A stretch of DNA of 40,191 bases from a virus. A program made the translations under genes and the position numbers. This document shows, one piece after another, positions 5,426 through 40,191 of the stretch (positions are counted from its first letter, which is position 1; every line of letters begins with the position of its first letter). The notes below the pieces were generated by a model. That model was not told the DNA's origin, ran no database searches, and worked only from the letters and a program-made list of their open reading frames with translations. The stretch is from the UHGV virus genome UHGV-1553673; one strand, written 5' to 3'.

Positions 5426-5584
5426 TTATGGCGATACCAGAGAGCTTTCTGTGTGTACATGCGTCTCTGTAACTTGCTCTCCTTCACTGTGGTTGCAAGT
5501 GACATGAATATCTCCTTCGTTACCGATTAATTCTTTCATCTGACGAATGAATTCTTCGTCTGACCAGTTATCTGTAAAACTCAT
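5426..5584 (-). CDS. Hypothetical small protein (52 aa from MSFTDNW)
   Basis: ATG overlaps the stop of an upstream 56-aa ORF (ATGA). Confidence 0.35.
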   Translation of the reverse strand: MSFTDNWSDEEFIRQMKELIGNEGDIHVTCNHSEGEQVTETHVHTESSLVSP

Positions 5585-5751
5585 GGACGGCCTTGTTGTT
5601 TCAAAATATCCCAAAGCTTTTCGAGCAAGCTTTTCATTCTTGGTTGTTTAAAGTCTGCTCCGGTTAAAATATTTTTTCGTGAATGCTGTACCGATAAAAT
5701 CGGGTTGAAAGGGCGAACCGATGCCGCCCCTGCAATAGCGAACTGTTGCAT
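5581..5751 (-). CDS. Hypothetical small protein (56 aa), kil-region position
   Basis: GAAGGAG RBS 6 nt before the ATG at 5751; below the 60-aa cutoff of the ORF track. Confidence 0.35.
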   Translation of the reverse strand: MQQFAIAGAASVRPFNPILSVQHSRKNILTGADFKQPRMKSLLEKLWDILKQQGRP

Positions 5752-5834
5752 AGGATGCTCCTTCTGTTTGATTGCATAACGAAAACGCCTCGAGTGAAGC
5801 GTTATTGGTATGCGGTAAAGCCGCGCTCAGGCGG

Positions 5835-6809
5835 CTATTTGATGTCTTGCGTGTAGCCTGTACCGCAACAGCATGAGCATTGCTCTATTGGCGCGTGAAT
5901 GGTATCCATAAGCGTCGTAAGGAAGTTATCAATCATTTCCTTTAGCTCCCATTCGTTATTGGCTTTGAACCCTTTAATCGCCGTATAACCTTTGTAATTT
6001 TCTTGGTCATGTGTCATTTGGAAAATTTCAATTTCTTTCACCGTGTCAGTCTTAAAGTGCAACTTTGCTCTTTGCTTCTTGGTTCTGGCAAAAATATCCT
6101 GATATGAATATGTGTGAGGCTTAAGGAGCGGTATTATTTTTTTAACGGTAAAGCAAAATGCGTAATCACTTGTTATTCTAGCCAGTTTGTTGTCGATGTT
6201 ATCTTTTACGTGCTGGCGTACAATGTCATACATTTCTTTTGATGAAATTTCACAAGGGCTGTTAGCCCGCAAAGGCTCAGGAATTATGATGCAGTCAACA
6301 AGAGAGTGTTTTACGTTTATGTTTTTTACAACGTACCTCTCCTCCCGGAACCCAACATGCCTAATTGCAGAGTAATTAAATTCTGGTGCGTCACGAAAAT
6401 TTTCAACCTCACATACTAATGTGAATTCAGCGTCAACTGGAGAGGTGTAATCAGGTGCAGTATCGTATTTGTATTCATAAAGAGAGCCTCTGATATCCTC
6501 GTCCACTGCGTCACGCTCATTGTAACTAAGTGTCAAAGGGTATTTTTTACTCTCAAGTTCAGCATCTTTAAGCTCGTAGCGAACATTAATTCTTTCACCA
6601 GAGATAATTCTCTCAACCTTTTCAGGGTAATGTTCAATTTCAAACCAGTTTTTGTGAAAGCTGGCTTTGGGTTTAACTCCGTCAAATAGGAGATCAGCAA
6701 TTTTAGATTGATGGTACTGGTAGTGATAACCGTCCTTTGCTGTGCAATCAGTGATAAAACATTTACCAGCGTCGGTTTTAATAATGCTTATTTGCAATGC
6801 GTTACTCAT
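5835..6809 (-). CDS. Hypothetical 324-aa protein in an AT-rich moron; candidate accessory/defence gene
   Basis: GC visibly lower than the flanks; GGAGG RBS before the ATG at 6809; hairpins flank both ends; cysteine-rich C-terminus CSCCCGTG; no family recognised. Confidence 0.6.
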   Translation of the reverse strand: MSNALQISIIKTDAGKCFITDCTAKDGYHYQYHQSKIADLLFDGVKPKASFHKNWFEIEHYPEKVERIISGERINVRYELKDAELESKKYPLTLSYNERDAVDEDIRGSLYEYKYDTAPDYTSPVDAEFTLVCEVENFRDAPEFNYSAIRHVGFREERYVVKNINVKHSLVDCIIIPEPLRANSPCEISSKEMYDIVRQHVKDNIDNKLARITSDYAFCFTVKKIIPLLKPHTYSYQDIFARTKKQRAKLHFKTDTVKEIEIFQMTHDQENYKGYTAIKGFKANNEWELKEMIDNFLTTLMDTIHAPIEQCSCCCGTGYTQDIK

Positions 6810-6983
6810 ATCTCCTCCAGGCAAAAAGAATGCCCTCACACTGGAGGGCAAAGAAGATTTCCAATAATCAGAACAAGTCGGCTCCTGTTTAGTTACGAGC
6901 GACATTGCTCCGTGTATTCACTCGTTGGAATGAATACACAGTGCAGTGTTTATTCTGTTGTTTATGCCAAAAATAAAGGCCGA

Positions 6984-7607
6984 CTATGCGGCCTCGGAAG
7001 GAAGTCCAATCATCTTATTCAAATCTTCTACCCGTAAAGCAGGAAGTGCTGTACTTGCTTTGTCTGCTTCTTTTGGTAGCAATTCTTTGCTTTCAGGCCA
7101 AACTTCAATAAGTCGCTTAACTGTTGTGACTGAGTTCAAAGCAGCCCATACATTTGATTCGATATCCTTTTTCTTGGCTTCAAGTTTTTGTTGCAATGCG
7201 CAGATTTCATCAAACCTTTTTGTTATTTCGTGTTCTGCGTCAAACATGCATTTATCTTTGGTCGGAGTAGGGAGCAATATATCTTCGCCGTTGCCGTCTT
7301 TCCCATATGAATGCCATCCAACCCTTCTGCCAGATACAGTCAGATAAATTGAAGTAGAACGAACATCGTATGAGTAAAATGAACATCCCATCTTTTCAAG
7401 TTCTTCACTTATAGCTACCAACTTGGATGATAACTGATCCACTTCCTCAGTTTTCTTTTTACCGCCAAACGCAATAACTCTGGCGTCAAGTGCAAGCTGG
7501 TTCTTTAACTTTGTTACTTCTTCAAGTTCAGTGAAAACCCCAGACTTAATTAAAGCGTTACGAGCGATTTCCTCTTTCATTCTCGTAGTTAAGCGGATTG
7601 ATGACAT
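6984..7607 (-). CDS. Hypothetical 207-aa protein (AT-rich region)
   Basis: RBS gagagg before the ATG at 7607; central coiled-coil-like stretch; family uncertain. Confidence 0.5.
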   Translation of the reverse strand: MSSIRLTTRMKEEIARNALIKSGVFTELEEVTKLKNQLALDARVIAFGGKKKTEEVDQLSSKLVAISEELEKMGCSFYSYDVRSTSIYLTVSGRRVGWHSYGKDGNGEDILLPTPTKDKCMFDAEHEITKRFDEICALQQKLEAKKKDIESNVWAALNSVTTVKRLIEVWPESKELLPKEADKASTALPALRVEDLNKMIGLPSEAA

Positions 7608-7672
7608 ATTAATTCCTCTCAAATAAGTGCTTTGCTGCCAAAACAATGAACCATCCGGAAATTCCAGATAGT

Positions 7673-7897
7673 TCATAATTCACTCTTCAATACTTCCAAC
7701 TTACTAATCGCCGATAGATATCCGCGCTGATAGGGCATCATCATTCCTTCGAGCTTGCCACTTCTTAACTCCTCCCTGAGCAATTGTATTGCTTGATCAA
7801 TAACCTCTGCCTTAGCGTCCTTTATGGCTTGCTTGCGGGGCTTTGCTTTCTGCTTTGGCAGATTTCTCAAGCATGATGGAATGTATGTCTGATTCAT
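7673..7897 (-). CDS. Hypothetical small protein (74 aa)
   Basis: Lies directly downstream of the N-like gene on the same strand. Confidence 0.4.
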   Translation of the reverse strand: MNQTYIPSCLRNLPKQKAKPRKQAIKDAKAEVIDQAIQLLREELRSGKLEGMMMPYQRGYLSAISKLEVLKSEL

Positions 7898-9647: not shown

Positions 9648-10295
9648 TCAGCCAAACGTCTCTTCAGGCCACTGCGCCTTAACTACCTTGCCTATGATGC
9701 GGCAGCTATGGTCGCAATCCAGGGTTCTATATGCCGGGTTTAAAGGTACCAGGTAACTAACCCCTGCATCCTTCTCATACTTCTTGAACGTTGCCTCTGA
9801 ATCACCATTTGCAGAAGCCACGCAGAAATCCCCAGACTCTACCGGCTCAGCCGGATCAACGAGTATCAGCATGCCTTCCGGAAAACTTGGACGAACCCCC
9901 TGAGGCGCCGTCATTGAATGCCCCTTCACCTCAAGCCAGAAAGCTTTTTCGCTGGCTTTTGTGGTCGTTGGGACCCATGCCTTTGCATCGCTGGCTGTGT
10001 AGCTTCCCACCTCCGAAAATGGCCCGGCCTGCACTGAAGAAAATAACGGGTATTCATATTGGCGAAATACGGCGTCTGAATCCTCGCCAAACATTATTTT
10101 TGCCGGAGATACGCCGAGTGCCGCCCCAAGAACCAGCGCGTCATCCGCGCTAACCTTTCTTGTTCCTAACTCGTAGTTCCCCAGGCGTGAAGGCGCAGCC
10201 CAGCCGCAAAGCTTGGCCAATTGAGCCTGGCTAAGTCCTTTAGCTTCTCTAAGGGACTTTATCCTTTCCCCGATAATTTCATGCATCGTTTTCAT
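9648..10295 (-). CDS. cI: CI/C2-type prophage repressor (HTH + S24 LexA-like peptidase domain)
   Basis: N-terminal XRE HTH ([11 protein letters not shown]); C-terminal GHSM...KK autocleavage motifs; divergent from cro. Confidence 0.9.
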
Positions 10296-34047: not shown

Positions 34048-34548
34048 TCACCTACTCAACAGATGGTCAGCAACCATGTTTGCTGCCTTATAAGCTATAG
34101 CCGCTTCATCAATGGTGTTGAATCTCCCAAGGGTTATGTTTTTACCTGAGACATTTATCTGAGCTTGCCATTGATTTCTGGCTTGACAGAAAGTTACCCC
34201 CTTGATTCCAGCATTGCTATTTCTAGGTCCGACATTTAATGCATTTACGACTCTGCTGACATCCCTAAGGTTTGAGATTGCGTTATTTCTTCTGTTTCTA
34301 TCAATGTGGTCAATCTCTTGTTTGGGCCATTCGCCATATACATACAGCCAGGCAAGTCTATGTGCAAAATATCTTACGCCATCAATATTAATTGCGTTAT
34401 ATCCATAAGAAATTGTGCCAGCAACTTTCCCAACAGCACCTCTGGCGCTTAATTTCTTTTTCCAAGTGAAAATTCCTGTTTCTTTATTGTAATCGAGAAC
34501 CTCCATAAGGCGCTCCCGAGTTACTACCTCGTGACGTCTCTTACTCAT
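34048..34548 (-). CDS. HNH homing-type endonuclease with AP2-like DNA-binding domain
   Basis: HNH block [33 protein letters not shown]; AP2-like [17 protein letters not shown]; GGAGA RBS before the ATG at 34548. Confidence 0.75.
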
Positions 34549-34570
34549 TATTTTCTCCGGAATGTTTATT

Positions 34571-36745
34571 ATGCCAGAACAATTATACAACGTTGTTGTT
34601 TCACAACCAAGTCAGTTATTTACTTTAGCTCGCTCGTTTAAAGCAAATGCCAATGGCAAAATTTATATAGGAAAAATTGACACTAACCCGGTAAATCCTG
34701 AAAACCAGATTCAGGTTTATGTGGAGAACGAAGACGGCTCTCACGTTCCTGTTTCGCAACCAATCATCATTAACGCTGCTGGTTATCCTGTATATAACGG
34801 ACAGATTGCCAAATTCGTTACTGTACAGGGCCATTCTATGGCTGTTTATGATGCGTACGGTGCTCAGCAGTTCTATTTCCCTAATGTACTGAAATATGAC
34901 CCCGACCAATTCAGTATTGACATCGTTAATCAGCTTGCTCAAACGGGTAAATATTTAGATGATGAAAGTAAAGGTGATGCGTTAATTGGCGTTAAACAGC
35001 CTTTTTTTGATGCAATAAGAAGGACTCAGCATGATAAAAATTCTGACCTGCTATCCATACAAGATTTAGGGGCAATAAGTGGCTTAGCTAATCCAGAGGT
35101 GGATGACAAAGTTATTTCTGTGCTTAATGCTAATGCTGGATTGTTAATTCCTGCTGGATTTGTCTACGTGACATCTAAGCCAATAGCTACATCGGCAGGT
35201 AAAGTCTTTAGCATCGTATGCCCAAATGGAAGGGCCACCATCAAAGCATCAGGAAACTATGCAATGTTCACTCAACCAGGCATGTTCAAATTTGAGAGAT
35301 GTCTTTTTGAAAACATACTGTTTATTGGTAATGGAGTATCTGATCTGAAATCAGTGTTCATGGAGGCTGATGATGGTGAGTGGGTGGCTAACTTTGCAAC
35401 ATATAACTGCTCATGGGAAGCATTCCATACTATATGGAATGCTTCATGGATTGCAGTATATCATTATTACCCTAAATTTAAATCTGTGAACGATTCAGGA
35501 TATATTCTTACTACGAATAAGTCTGGTGCAAATAACTTTGCAGCATTCAATCTCAATGTTATGGATAACCCAATATTCGAAAACTGTAGAGCAAGAATTT
35601 ACTTCGATATAACAGGTGGATTTAATTTTACCATCAACAATCCATGGATTGAGAAAGGTGAGGTTTTTGGTGGTGCATTTTTTAGACTAAGGCAGTTCTT
35701 TAATTTCAAAGTTATTGATGGTTGGTTTGAGTATTTCAAAGGGGGAAATTTTCTGTACTTAAGAACAGATGGCACAGAGAATACACAATCTGACAACATA
35801 ACTTTTGATGGGATGCACATTAATAACTCTCGCTCTGATTCAGAATTTAAAGGATTGGTTTTAATGGATCAGCCGCAATATGCAGAGAATTATACCGATC
35901 CTAAATTTACGTTTAAGAATATTGTAGAACACAATAGCTCTTCTTCAGGATGGTACTTACTAAAATCCGGTGATGTTACCAATCGCTCAGAATCACTTAC
36001 CGTAATAGAAAATCTTCGTCTTAAATATGGACATCCACCTTGCTCAGATGGAATGACTATAGCAAGAACACAAGACGGAAATAGCCCAGACATTAAAAAC
36101 TCTACAAGAAACCTTAGCACTAATGGTTTACAGTTTCTGCCTAGAGCCTTTCAAACAACAACATACCGGACAAAAAATGGAGAATATCAGCAACAACAAA
36201 TAGTTGATAGTACATCTAATATAGCATACTGGAATATCGGTACCTCAACGGTTCTCGTGTGGGGCGTAGATTATGTTAGGCCTGGTCGGCAGAACGCTCA
36301 AACATGTGGAACGTCAGCATATGCATGGTCAGGTGGGTATACACAAACAGCTTTTCAGGTCACGTCAGACAGAAACTCAAAAACAGAAGAGTCACAAATA
36401 CCTGATGCTGTTCTCGACGCCTGGGGTGACGTTCAGTATGTATCATATAAATTAAAGGCAAGCGTGGCAGAAAAAGGTAGTAAAGCCCGGAGACATATTG
36501 GGGTCATAGCCCAAGACATCAAGACAGCTTTTGAATCACATGGGGTTGATCCATTCGAATATGGCATACTATGTTATGACAATACCCCAGCAACAGAAGC
36601 TGTTTACGATATTTTAGAAGATGGTACTCAGGTAATGCTTCAGGAGGCACGTGATGCTCACTCAGGTTACACTGTACGCTACGAAGAAATACTTTGTCTT
36701 GAGGCTGCATATATGCGTAGAGAGATAAAAAGGATGCAGAAATAA
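34571..36745 (+). CDS. Tailspike: P22-like N-terminal head-binding domain, distinct central beta-helix domain, C-terminal intramolecular chaperone (S74-type) domain
   Basis: N-terminus aligns to P22 gp9 (VVVS.P...F...[33 protein letters not shown]); C-terminal ...[10 protein letters not shown]... chaperone-like module. Confidence 0.85.
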
Positions 36746-36774: not shown

Positions 36775-36812
36775 ATATACCACCTCAACATAAGAGGTGG
36801 TATATTTTTTTG
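36775..36812 (+). terminator. Rho-independent terminator after the tailspike gene
   Basis: 12-bp stem ATATACCACCTC / GAGGTGGTATAT followed by T7. Confidence 0.75.
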
Positions 36813-36837
36813 GGGAGCGACTAATAAATTATATATT

Positions 36838-38625
36838 TTATTTCAAAGATTGAAGTAAGTCTGTTTTTTTGTCTAAGACTTCTCCAATGTAACTTGCTCC
36901 ATATTTCGTTAGATGGTTTGCATCATATGATAAAAATTTGCCATTCTCATCAAAAACTCTAACCATTCCATTGTTGTCTTTTATAAGGTCAAACAAATCT
37001 ATGTAGTCATCGCCAAAAATCATTTTCGCCTTATTGTTAAACTCTATATATCTTGATAGCGGGTATGTTTTTGCTAAAACTCTGTCATTAAGAGACAGGT
37101 TAACAGCAAAGTTATTGTTATACCCGAAGTTTTTTGTGCCAATCAAGTACATTTTTGCAGTTGTTTTTGATTTTATGTAATCGTAACAGTGTTTTAACTT
37201 TTCAACGTTATTATTATAGTCGCCTGCACCCCAATTCTCCGAATATAAAATAATGTCTGAGTCATTCAAGTAGTAATCTAATTTATTTTTATTATCTATT
37301 GACCAATCACATCCACCCTCAAAATATACAATATTAAGATCATTTGTTTTAATCTTTGTAGATATTGCATTAATTAAATCTCTCGCATATGAGTTACCCA
37401 TGATTAATATTTTCTTTCCATTGTCTGAGAACTCAATATTCTTTAATTTCTTCGGGCTATCCACATACTCCTGTGGATTTCCTCCATATGCAAGATCAGG
37501 CCTGATATTTTGCAATCCATATGTTTTGTGCATCAAAATTCCTGATGCTGATAACACCAACGAAAATGCTAATGTATATGATAAGATTTTTTTTGTAGAT
37601 GTTTTTCTCTTGTTTCTGAATGGTTTTTCTACAAAAACATAAGACATCCACGATATAATAAAAATTAAAGGAATGGATGCGATAAAATATGTTGTTGACG
37701 GTTCAAATTTTGAGTTTAATCTTATAAATGCAAAAACAGGTTGATGCCAAAGGTATAGAGAATAACTTATCATGCCACATAACACAATTGGTTTTATTGA
37801 CATGAGCTTTCCAATTCCTTTAGATGCATTTGAATGCATTAAAAACAAACATGCACCAAGAACTGGAAATAATGTTTCAAATCCAGGGTGTGATTTTTTA
37901 CCATTCACAATGAAGTAACTTGATATTATCAATAAAAAACCAAGGTATGCTAAGATGTTACTTTTTCTTTTTATTTTATAGTGCGCAATAGCGGCAACCC
38001 CACCAAGAGCAATCTCCCACGCCCTTGAAGGGAGCATAAGAAATGAAAGCTCCATATTATGCACTGTTGTAATTGTTGCATATAAAAAACTGGCAATTGA
38101 TATTACCAGTAAAAACATAAAACTATTCTTTATTAGTTTATTATGATTTATTGAGTAAATTATATATATTATTACAGGGGCTACAAGATAATACTGTTCT
38201 TCTACAGCAAGACTCCATGTGTGATACAATGGTTTAAATTCAGATGCTGTAGACCAATATCCTGACGTTAAGTACAATAATATATTGTTTGCTGAAAAAA
38301 TTGTTGCAACAACTGATTGACCTAGATTCTTTAGGTCATATGGAACCATCATAAATAATGATATAATGAATGTTACTGATGTCATTAGAATTAATGCAGG
38401 CGCAATTCTACGAACCCTTCTCTCATAAAACCCAGAGAATGTAAATGTTCTATTGCTGCATTCTTTCAGCAAAATGCTGGTAATTAAAAAACCACTAATA
38501 ACAAAAAAAACATCTACTCCAAGAAAGCCGCCAGGAATCCATTGAACACCTGCATGAAAAAAGATAACAGGTAAAACAGCTAATGTTCTCAACCCATCAA
38601 TTTCGGGTCTGTATTTCAGTTCCAT
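36838..38625 (-). CDS. O-antigen acyltransferase, OafA/Oac-type (acyltransferase-3 membrane domain + SGNH domain); lysogenic conversion gene
   Basis: 595 aa; multi-TM N-terminal half (MELKYRPEIDGLRTLAVLPVIFFHAG...); C-terminal GNSYARD SGNH-like motif; strongly AT-rich. Confidence 0.8.
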   Translation of the reverse strand: MELKYRPEIDGLRTLAVLPVIFFHAGVQWIPGGFLGVDVFFVISGFLITSILLKECSNRTFTFSGFYERRVRRIAPALILMTSVTFIISLFMMVPYDLKNLGQSVVATIFSANNILLYLTSGYWSTASEFKPLYHTWSLAVEEQYYLVAPVIIYIIYSINHNKLIKNSFMFLLVISIASFLYATITTVHNMELSFLMLPSRAWEIALGGVAAIAHYKIKRKSNILAYLGFLLIISSYFIVNGKKSHPGFETLFPVLGACLFLMHSNASKGIGKLMSIKPIVLCGMISYSLYLWHQPVFAFIRLNSKFEPSTTYFIASIPLIFIISWMSYVFVEKPFRNKRKTSTKKILSYTLAFSLVLSASGILMHKTYGLQNIRPDLAYGGNPQEYVDSPKKLKNIEFSDNGKKILIMGNSYARDLINAISTKIKTNDLNIVYFEGGCDWSIDNKNKLDYYLNDSDIILYSENWGAGDYNNNVEKLKHCYDYIKSKTTAKMYLIGTKNFGYNNNFAVNLSLNDRVLAKTYPLSRYIEFNNKAKMIFGDDYIDLFDLIKDNNGMVRVFDENGKFLSYDANHLTKYGASYIGEVLDKKTDLLQSLK

Positions 38626-38797
38626 ATGTTATACCATTTAATGTTAATTACATCAAAAAAAGACGAATGCTACATGTGTGATTGTTTCTGTGGAAACATG
38701 TTAAATTTATTTGTATTCTATCATTGCTGTGAATCATGATCGATACTGTGACTATGCAATGTTATTCTAATTTTTGCTCATGCATGGGAAAACAATT

Positions 38798-39979
38798 TCA
38801 TTGATGTGGCCTAAAAGTTGCGCTATTTTTCTCTCCATCAAGCCAATCTGCCCACCACTGCATCATTTCTCTGCGCTTATCTAGATACTGAGCATGGTTG
38901 TAAATCCCGCGCACAGATCCGCCGTTGGCATGTGCAAGTTGCACTTCAATAGCATCAGCAGGCCATTCGTGCTCGTTCATAATCGTGCTGAATTCATGCC
39001 TGAATCCGTGACCGCTTTCCAGACCCTCATAGCCGATTCGTTTGATCACAAGTAATACCGCGTTCTCGCAGATTGGCTTCTTCTTATCGTTACGCCCGGC
39101 AAAAACAAACTCTGATACTGGTTTGGTGATTGAGCTTAGCGTAGTGAGAAGTTCAACCACCTGGTCTGACATAGGAACCACATGAATTTTGCGTCCCTTC
39201 ATCACACTGGCGTCGATAGTGATAATCCTGTTTTCAAAATCGACGTTCTTCCATTGCATGGAACGAAGCTCTTTCGTTCTTAGGGCTGTGTAGCGTAAAA
39301 CTTTGGTCGCAATGAGCGATACGATGCTTCCTGAAAATGTTGCCAGTGCTTTGTTGAATGCCGGGATCTGGTCTGCAGGAAGAAACGGGAAGTTCTTCTT
39401 GCGGTATCCTTTCATGGCGTCAGCAAGGTCAGGTGCCGGGTTATATTTAGCCCTACCAGTGACAATAGCGTAACGGAAAACCTCGCCGCATCTTCTGCGG
39501 GCTTTATTTGCTCGCTCCATTGCACCGCGATCTTCAAATCTGCGGATTACTTCCAGTAGTTGCATCGGCTCAATATCCTGAATTTCAAGACCGCCGATGA
39601 TGGGTAAAATGTCGTCATCAAACATTTTTGCAAGTTCATTTGCATAGCCTACTGACCAGACTTGCTTCTTGTGCTCGTACCATTCCTTGTAAATGGCGCT
39701 AAAGGAATTGTTGTTAGATGAAGCCTTTTTCGCCTTTACCGGATCGATGCCAACCGAGATGTCTTTCCTCGCGGTCCATGCTTTATCCCTTGCTTCCTGC
39801 AAAGTCATAAGCGGATATTTTCCGACAGTCAGGATTTTCTCCTTACCGTCAATCTTGTAGCGAAGCTGCCATACCTTTTTCCCTGATACAGGGACATAAA
39901 GGTACAGGCCATTACCATCGAGTAGGCGGTATGGTTTTTCTTTCGGCTTTGCTGCTTCAATCTGCTTAACGGTGAGCAT
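38798..39979 (-). CDS. int: Tyrosine integrase, P4/IntS-type
   Basis: N-terminal arm-binding domain (LTVKQIEAAKPKEKPYRLLDGNGLYLYV...); C-terminal catalytic R..H..R..Y region; adjacent to the tRNA; the ORF extends to 40015 with a non-ATG start. Confidence 0.9.
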   Translation of the reverse strand: MLTVKQIEAAKPKEKPYRLLDGNGLYLYVPVSGKKVWQLRYKIDGKEKILTVGKYPLMTLQEARDKAWTARKDISVGIDPVKAKKASSNNNSFSAIYKEWYEHKKQVWSVGYANELAKMFDDDILPIIGGLEIQDIEPMQLLEVIRRFEDRGAMERANKARRRCGEVFRYAIVTGRAKYNPAPDLADAMKGYRKKNFPFLPADQIPAFNKALATFSGSIVSLIATKVLRYTALRTKELRSMQWKNVDFENRIITIDASVMKGRKIHVVPMSDQVVELLTTLSSITKPVSEFVFAGRNDKKKPICENAVLLVIKRIGYEGLESGHGFRHEFSTIMNEHEWPADAIEVQLAHANGGSVRGIYNHAQYLDKRREMMQWWADWLDGEKNSATFRPHQ

Positions 39980-40140
39980 GGGTAAAAATCCGGTGGGTAA
40001 AATTATTTTATCCACTTTTTACCCGTCATGGAGTGCGGCTGTCAACGATCTGACGCGAACCATGACGAACTGTGAATCTACGGAAGGCTTGATATTCAGG
40101 GGATTTTGCGGACTGGTACGGATGGAGGCGAACTGATAAA

Positions 40141-40155
40141 TGGTGTCCCCTGCAG
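40141..40155. repeat. att core copy inside the tRNA 3' end (integrase-proximal)
   Basis: Exact 15-nt repeat of 442-456. Confidence 0.7.
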
Positions 40156-40191
40156 GAATCGAACCTGCAATTAGCCCTTAGGAGGGGCTCG
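40141..40191 (-). tRNA. argW: tRNA-Arg (anticodon CCU), 3' portion; truncated by the window edge
   Basis: Minus strand reads ...AGCCC-CTCCTAA-GGGCT (anticodon stem-loop with CCT), T-arm GCAGG-TTCGATT-CCTGC, acceptor and ACCA. Confidence 0.85.

Follow-up and report, generated by a model that had tools for sequence, protein, structure and literature searches.

A probable OafA/OafB-type O-acetyltransferase gene in the tailspike-integrase slot of a P22-like Escherichia coli prophage

The window, that is, the whole stretch of 40,191 nucleotides analysed here (UHGV virus genome UHGV-1553673), consists essentially of a single P22-like (Lederbergvirus-type) prophage of E. coli. A gene located between its integrase and tailspike very probably encodes an intact O-acetyltransferase of the OafA/OafB type, carried as a lysogenic-conversion gene, or moron, of a prophage integrated at argW; its target is most probably the O-antigen, and the run of eight thymines (T8) close to its start would be a by-product of the sequence rather than a switch. 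The identification of the gene as an OafA-type AT3-SGNH acyltransferase, present as AT-rich cargo in the tailspike-integrase slot, is well supported and is based on homology, structure prediction and gene context (Table 1). The gene is thus an ordinary lysogenic-conversion gene of the known OafA/OafB class.

Table 1. Position of the acyltransferase gene, its parts and the neighbouring features in the window
Feature	Position	Strand	Description
Tailspike	34562..36745	+	Pfam Head_binding (P22 head-binding), uncharacterised receptor-binding core, C-terminal Peptidase_S74 chaperone
Tailspike terminator	36775..36805	+	12-bp-stem hairpin, then T-run; terminator scan
12-bp direct repeat ATATATAATTTA	36825..36836	-	Second copy at 38156-38167, inside the acyltransferase gene; sequence
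Acyltransferase CDS	36838..38625	-	595 aa, ATG start, AT3 and SGNH fusion
SGNH domain, residues 399-585	36871..37431	-	PF19040, E 5.4e-12
Predicted 11th transmembrane helix (residues 344-367) and linker to SGNH	37414..37596	-	AlphaFold2 helix H344-367
Second 8-base run (A8 coding)	37587..37594	-	Codons T344 K345 K346 I347; A6G in 83%-identical allele
AT3 membrane domain, residues 7-329	37639..38607	-	Acyl_transf_3, PF01757, E 2.2e-29, above gathering score
T8 run (coding; A8 on + strand)	38503..38510	-	GAT GTT TTT TTT GTT, D38 V39 F40 F41 V42
Region upstream of acyltransferase, 172 bp	38626..38797	-	92-96% identity with its counterpart in the H1-type allele
IntS-type tyrosine integrase	38798..40015	-	Pfam Arm-DNA-bind_3, Phage_int_M, Phage_integrase
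argW (tRNA-Arg), 3' part	40144..40191	-	Rfam tRNA 31.3 bits, truncated at 5' end

Prophage setting and domain architecture

The closest sequenced phage, IME10, matched the right-hand 20 kb of the window with 96% identity over 69% of the length. The fragment of argW, which carries a tRNA-Arg annotation under the DNA match, corresponds to the attachment-site end of the prophage and is cut by the edge of the window. Next to it, the integrase is 94.9-98% identical to annotated intS in E. coli genomes, and the likeness to other intS-bearing E. coli loci ends at about position 38832, some 35 bp inside the 3' end of int. In flanked contigs, the host genes fadJ-fadI-yfcZ-fadL-mlaA-yfdC are followed by the integrase, the acyltransferase, the tailspike, and the P22-type injection and tail genes, an order retained wherever flanks were available among the public contigs encoding the exact protein. 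The acyltransferase and tailspike genes are convergent and separated by the terminator hairpin, which lies 33 nt past the acyltransferase stop codon on the opposite strand and whose CCACC...GGTGG core is retained in H1-type loci.

The position of the gene between the tailspike and the integrase/att site, outside the virion and lysis modules, its GC content of 0.31 compared with about 0.5, and the variable content of the slot are those of a moron. For instance, IME10 (L025, 4995-6461) has an unannotated 488-aa DUF2264 ORF instead of the acyltransferase, and an unrelated ORF occupies the slot of Kapi1. A first-pass annotation of the window had described the ORF as a 595-aa AT3 protein of the OafA type with a C-terminal SGNH domain, lying in an AT-rich segment bracketed by the tailspike terminator and the integrase, the usual slot of serotype-converting genes. 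This description was borne out in all its parts: the ORF matched both Pfam families, GC content is 0.30-0.34 over 36800-38800 (31.7% for the gene itself) against 0.45-0.55 in the integrase and structural genes, the hairpin and the integrase flank the gene on either side, the same layout is found in BTP1 and in the position of Sf6 oac, and the OafA-type identity agrees with the motifs, catalytic triad, protein family and structural match presented below.

Two further observations were made in the prophage. An ORF of 180 aa with HNH_3 and AP2 domains, resembling a homing endonuclease, lies at 34048-34590 (- strand) between an mnt/arc-type repressor gene and the tailspike, the start of which it overlaps; it looks like a recent mobile insertion, since it is present in the near-identical contig L008 and absent in five others (L003-L007). 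At 10015-10097 (- strand), within an ORF of 215 aa, ARAGORN called a tRNA-Ala(cgc) of 83 nt; Rfam reported no tRNA there at the gathering threshold, and the call is probably a false positive.

The AlphaFold2 model of the 595-aa protein reached a pLDDT of 90.2 and a pTM of 0.88. The AT3 motifs were all located, including R13-X10-H24, G32-G-F-L-G-V-D38, F40-F-V-I-S-G45 and R69/R70..R72/R73, with E333 just downstream of the domain. The SGNH catalytic triad comprises S412, in the G-N-S sequence of block I, and D568 and H571, in the DxxH sequence of block V, and it aligns to the triad of structure 6SE1. In an alignment of 38 homologues with 37-82% identity, the three triad residues were invariant, and the other invariant or nearly invariant positions were R13, H24, G32, G33, G36, V37, D38, F40, I43, S44, G45, R70, R72, R73, E142, H294, E333 and G410. 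The best-scoring phage family was PHROG 6705, 'O-antigen acetylase' (E 4.7e-135), whereas PHROG 3333, which is AT3-only, matched far less strongly (E 9e-42), and the crystal structure of the OafB SGNH domain was the closest solved structural match, ahead of OatA and PatB. All the sequence-level features of OafA/OafB-type enzymes are therefore present: PF01757, PF19040 with its triad, the motif set, and the 11th helix with an OafB-like extended SGNH fold.

By analogy with OafA and OafB, the 10-helix AT3 domain would move acetyl groups from cytoplasmic acetyl-CoA through the inner membrane, while the 11th helix would place the SGNH domain in the periplasm, where the Ser412-Asp568-His571 triad could transfer acetate to a surface-polysaccharide sugar, most probably one in the O-antigen. 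Such a modification may change the serotype of the lysogen and hinder the binding or cleavage of the polysaccharide by tailspikes of the same or related phages, resulting in superinfection exclusion.

Acceptor glycan and relation to characterised acetylases

The best protein matches in sequenced phages are only 30-37% identical to the window protein and comprise BTP1 GtrC, g341c gp15, SPC32H Oac and Pseudomonas D3 Oac, all of them annotated or characterised as O-antigen acetylases. Since the named phage homologues belong to this functional group, the closest solved structure is that of OafB, and the N-terminal 196 residues of the tailspike are Sf6-like, the acceptor is most probably the O-antigen by analogy. 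As the first-pass annotation proposed, it may be the one to which the tailspike of this phage binds, but the tailspike core found beside the same allele in contig L013 is divergent. Tail proteins from two unrelated phages, Shigella DS8 and E. coli HK2, share 74% identity with the receptor-binding core of the tailspike, for which no solved or characterised relative was found.

Another surface glycan, such as a group 1/4 capsule, colanic acid, ECA or peptidoglycan, that is also targeted by the tailspike is a rather unlikely acceptor. Although the acceptors of AT3-SGNH proteins are varied, OatA for instance acting on peptidoglycan, the solved SGNH domain nearest to that of the window protein is from the O-antigen enzyme OafB, before OatA and PatB, and the window protein contains every OafA-type motif that is specific to O-antigen enzymes of the AT3-SGNH kind. 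The Peptidase_S74 chaperone domain of the tailspike is found in capsule-specific spikes such as endosialidases, whereas its first 196 residues resemble the spike of the O-antigen-specific phage Sf6. The best PHROG of the tailspike bears the label 'colanic acid degradation activity'; however, PHROG labels are transferred annotations rather than the outcome of tests. Finally, NeuO, the equivalent cargo of CUS-3, acetylates a capsule, but the best-scoring phage family of the window protein and every phage homologue with a named function are O-antigen acetylases.

Comparison with OafA of Salmonella Typhimurium, the abequose O-acetyltransferase responsible for the O:5 factor, showed the same two-domain architecture. 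The OafA residues R14, H25, D39, R69, R72, S412 and H590 correspond to R13, H24, D38, R69-73, S412 and H571 of the window protein, so that all the residues found essential by mutagenesis are matched. The conserved positions of the 38-sequence alignment have one-to-one counterparts in OafA, located in the R-X10-H pair of TMH1 (R14, H25), the GG-F/Y-XGV-D loop (D39), the FFXISG and RXXR motifs (R69 and R72 in the latter), E325 after TMH10 and the triad S412/D587/H590. Alanine at most of the motif and triad residues of OafA abolishes or strongly lowers O:5 acetylation (PMC7448272). Unlike the window gene, oafA is chromosomal and has no adjoining tailspike, and the two proteins are distantly related in sequence and differ in specificity.

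GtrC, the rhamnose O-acetyltransferase of the P22-like Salmonella prophage BTP1, and OafB, with the family-2 GtrC relatives, share with the window protein the AT3 and SGNH fusion, a similar length, the RXXR motif and the catalytic triad. BTP1 also has the same convergent arrangement, in which the acetyltransferase lies between the integrase and an oppositely oriented tailspike gene, in a Lederbergvirus-type genome. GtrC acetylates the rhamnose of the O-antigen and gives protection from both BTP1 and P22; it also shields this polysaccharide from the tailspike of the prophage itself (PMC4413052; PMC9558356). However, the identity to GtrC is only about 31%, the window gene has no gtrA remnant upstream, and block I of the window protein reads GNS instead of GDS. 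The window prophage also differs from BTP1 in its E. coli host, its IntS-type integrase at argW and its unrelated tailspike.

Other P22-like phages carry comparable cargo. Oac of Shigella phage Sf6 and Oac1b of Sf101 are O-antigen acetylases encoded beside the integrase and downstream of the tailspike; they have the FFxISG and RXXR motifs in common with the window protein and confer superinfection immunity (PMC9558356). At about 330 aa, Sf6 Oac consists of AT3 alone and lacks the SGNH domain, which distinguishes it from the window protein. Kapi1 is likewise a P22-like E. coli phage at argW that has a tailspike-integrase cargo slot and modifies the host O-antigen, but the protein encoded by its slot cargo (hyp24) is hypothetical and unrelated, and this phage has not been described as carrying an AT3-SGNH gene. 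The closest ecological analogue, with an unrelated enzyme, is CUS-3 of E. coli K1, a P22-like prophage at argW whose cargo product NeuO is a surface-polysaccharide O-acetyltransferase that protects against phage. NeuO acts on the K1 capsule and is a soluble hexapeptide-repeat acetyltransferase, not an AT3-SGNH protein.

Serotype, susceptibility to phages and vaccine epitopes are all altered by phage-encoded O-antigen acetylases, which have been studied in detail for Salmonella, Shigella and Pseudomonas but hardly for E. coli; the window enzyme shares only about 30% identity with any enzyme characterised so far. Finding its acceptor and serogroup would add one modification to those of E. coli O-antigens and help to predict the host range of phages with matching tailspikes, while the identification would leave the current understanding of how such systems work unchanged.

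Distribution, alleles and expression

Copies of the exact protein are encoded by at least 17 public contigs, and 40 sequences, from E. coli and E. marmotae, make up its 90% cluster; the gene was also found on two IMG/VR prophage contigs. Among 5426 complete E. coli genomes, the window allele was absent and an 83%-identical allele was present in two. A search of GenBank phage DNA with the cassette gave no match, and a scan of GTDB representative genomes returned no confirmed relative.

Compared with the allele of E. coli H1 (L001), the window sequence is 92-96% identical from the 3' end of the integrase to about codon 160 (about position 38120) and approximately 75% identical from there on, and the window and H1-type alleles adjoin unrelated tailspike cores. 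Purifying selection is indicated over the first 160 codons, where the alleles differ by 2% in amino acids and by 25% at four-fold degenerate sites. The drop in identity after codon 160 could reflect a recombination breakpoint within the gene or a stronger constraint on the N-terminal part. It might be supposed that the tailspike core moves with the 3' two-thirds of the acyltransferase gene as one specificity cassette; however, their linkage is loose, given that in all homologues conservation is highest over the N-terminal 160 residues, that divergence at four-fold sites is only halved in the N-terminal part (0.25 vs about 0.49 in the rest), and that contig L013 pairs a 99.4%-identical acyltransferase with a tailspike core whose DNA identity is only 57-80%.

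A different arrangement was observed in contig L026 (JGI 3300076395, 5503-7709), in which the 5' region of the acyltransferase and approximately 107 bp of the IntS 3' end lie downstream of an excisionase and of another integrase, of the lambda type (Arm-DNA-bind_1). The cargo cassette has thus moved between P22-like phages with different integration modules.

In the region upstream of the gene, promoter-like matches were located at 38733-38704 (TTCACA-18-TAAATT) and 38723-38715 (TGATAGAAT), although matches in the promoter scan of this region were no commoner than in shuffled sequences. An Rfam search of the acyltransferase flanks returned no family at E <= 1. A Dam/OxyR switch of the gtr type is unlikely, as the 172-bp region has a single GATC (38738-38741); in the gtr genes, as Broadbent and co-workers reportedly described in 2010, the signature of phase variation consists of several GATC sites upstream of the gene; PMC4413052 refers to that work for a 'signature sequence'. 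An apparent depletion of GATC is probably a counting artefact, the palindrome having been scored on both strands in the shuffles.

The gene might instead be a passenger that is silent or in decay, such as foreign AT-rich DNA repressed by H-NS, and without effect on the lysogen, a reading to which we assign a very low probability. Its very low GC content, the lack of an above-chance promoter upstream and its rarity in complete genomes are in agreement with silencing or decay, and several inactivated copies exist in public data, but most copies are full length with all catalytic residues conserved. The purifying selection over the first 160 codons and the 92-96% conservation of the upstream spacer between alleles also argue against a passenger, as does the BTP1 counterpart, which is expressed in lysogens under many conditions (PMC4413052). 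In the favoured reading, the gene would be expressed in the lysogen.

The T8 tract and other repeats in the coding region

The eight-base tract that the first-pass annotation had placed in the codons for DVFFVIS is present, as T8 on the coding strand. It consists of the codons GTT TTT TTT (V39 F40 F41) within the FFxISG motif, which is common to all AT3 acetyltransferases (PMC7448272). In this gene, TTT encodes 33 of 39 phenylalanines and GTT 18 of 32 valines. A null model was constructed from 5000 synonymous-codon shuffles within the gene, keeping the protein and its codon counts: at least one A/T run of eight or more bases occurred in 87% of the shuffles and at least two in 51%, and a T8 or longer stood at the exact site in 40%. 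The gene also has a second 8-base run, missed in the first-pass annotation, and a 7-base run at 36864-36870. According to the shuffle frequencies and these other runs, the T8 tract is no statistical anomaly. Moreover, the same GVDVFFVISGF peptide is encoded with T6 (GTA TTT TTT) in a 61%-identical homologue, and BTP1 gtrC also has T6 at this site. Encoding the VFF motif with AT-rich codons is what produces the tract, which is an ordinary frameshift-prone site and no dedicated switch.

The tract had also been proposed as a slipped-strand ON/OFF device, in which case it would be a contingency locus turned OFF in T7 or T9 forms and ON in T8, giving mixed populations as for NeuO in the argW prophage CUS-3. 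We regard such a locus as highly improbable, and the idea of a designed switch found no support in the shuffles, the T6 homologues and the contigs retrieved regardless of reading frame. There is precedent for such regulation in related systems, as neuO of CUS-3 (PMC9659370) and oafA of H. influenzae (PMC9558356) are both phase-variable by slipped-strand mispairing. In neuO the mispairing takes place in the 5' coding region, but its repeat is a heptanucleotide array and not a homopolymer. An A/T run of eight bases is short in comparison with known homopolymeric switches. The tract of the window gene lies early in the ORF (codons 39-41), so that a frameshift there would abolish the protein, with predicted products of 46 aa for T7 and 43 aa for T9; yet such a tract is to be expected from the protein sequence and codon usage, and homologues that keep the same peptide do not retain it.

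Tract lengths across related contigs, the comparison suggested in the first-pass annotation, were T8 in 17 contigs and T7 in two, so that the length is not fully constant. Ten of the T8 contigs had been retrieved through the intact protein and are T8 by construction, but all six contigs retrieved by DNA or tblastn, regardless of reading frame, were also T8. In an exact look-up of the predicted products, the 46-aa T7 peptide was on record in public data, whereas the T9 peptide and the long downstream ORFs were not. The T7 peptide maps to L026 and to L027 (Logan ERR14375954), which otherwise have a 99%-identical allele of the window type and share SNPs distinct from the other copies, so that one T7 contraction event is the simplest account of both. 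In L027 (700-760), the 1331 bp between the two copies of ATATATAATTTA have been lost, removing codons ~158-595, so that a 5' stub of the acyltransferase, with T7, is joined to the terminator and to a tailspike of 84% identity; contig L026 ends before the deletion point. Because one of the T7 copies has also been irreversibly deleted, the observed variation fits decay at a slippage-prone site better than switching. The other inactivated copy carries a CGA to TGA substitution and not a slippage, and the truncated member P0133 starts at M197, which does not agree with a frameshift at codon 40.

It is very doubtful that T8 acts in practice as a reversible ON/OFF switch of glycan acetylation, with the T7 contigs representing the OFF state. 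Such a switch would be a homopolymer counterpart of CUS-3 neuO and would give rise to lysogen populations with mixed susceptibility to phages and antibodies.

Other sequence features of the coding region were less distinctive. For the second 8-base run, an exact look-up of the A7 and A9 products was negative, a weak result because it depends on whole-protein identity. The ATATATAATTTA repeat is within chance, as 40% of local shuffles of this AT-rich DNA contain a repeated 12-mer. A terminator-like hairpin followed by T6 was also noted inside the coding region at 38089-38110 (- strand, codons ~172-184); it is probably a chance match, and its stem is weakened in the H1-type allele.
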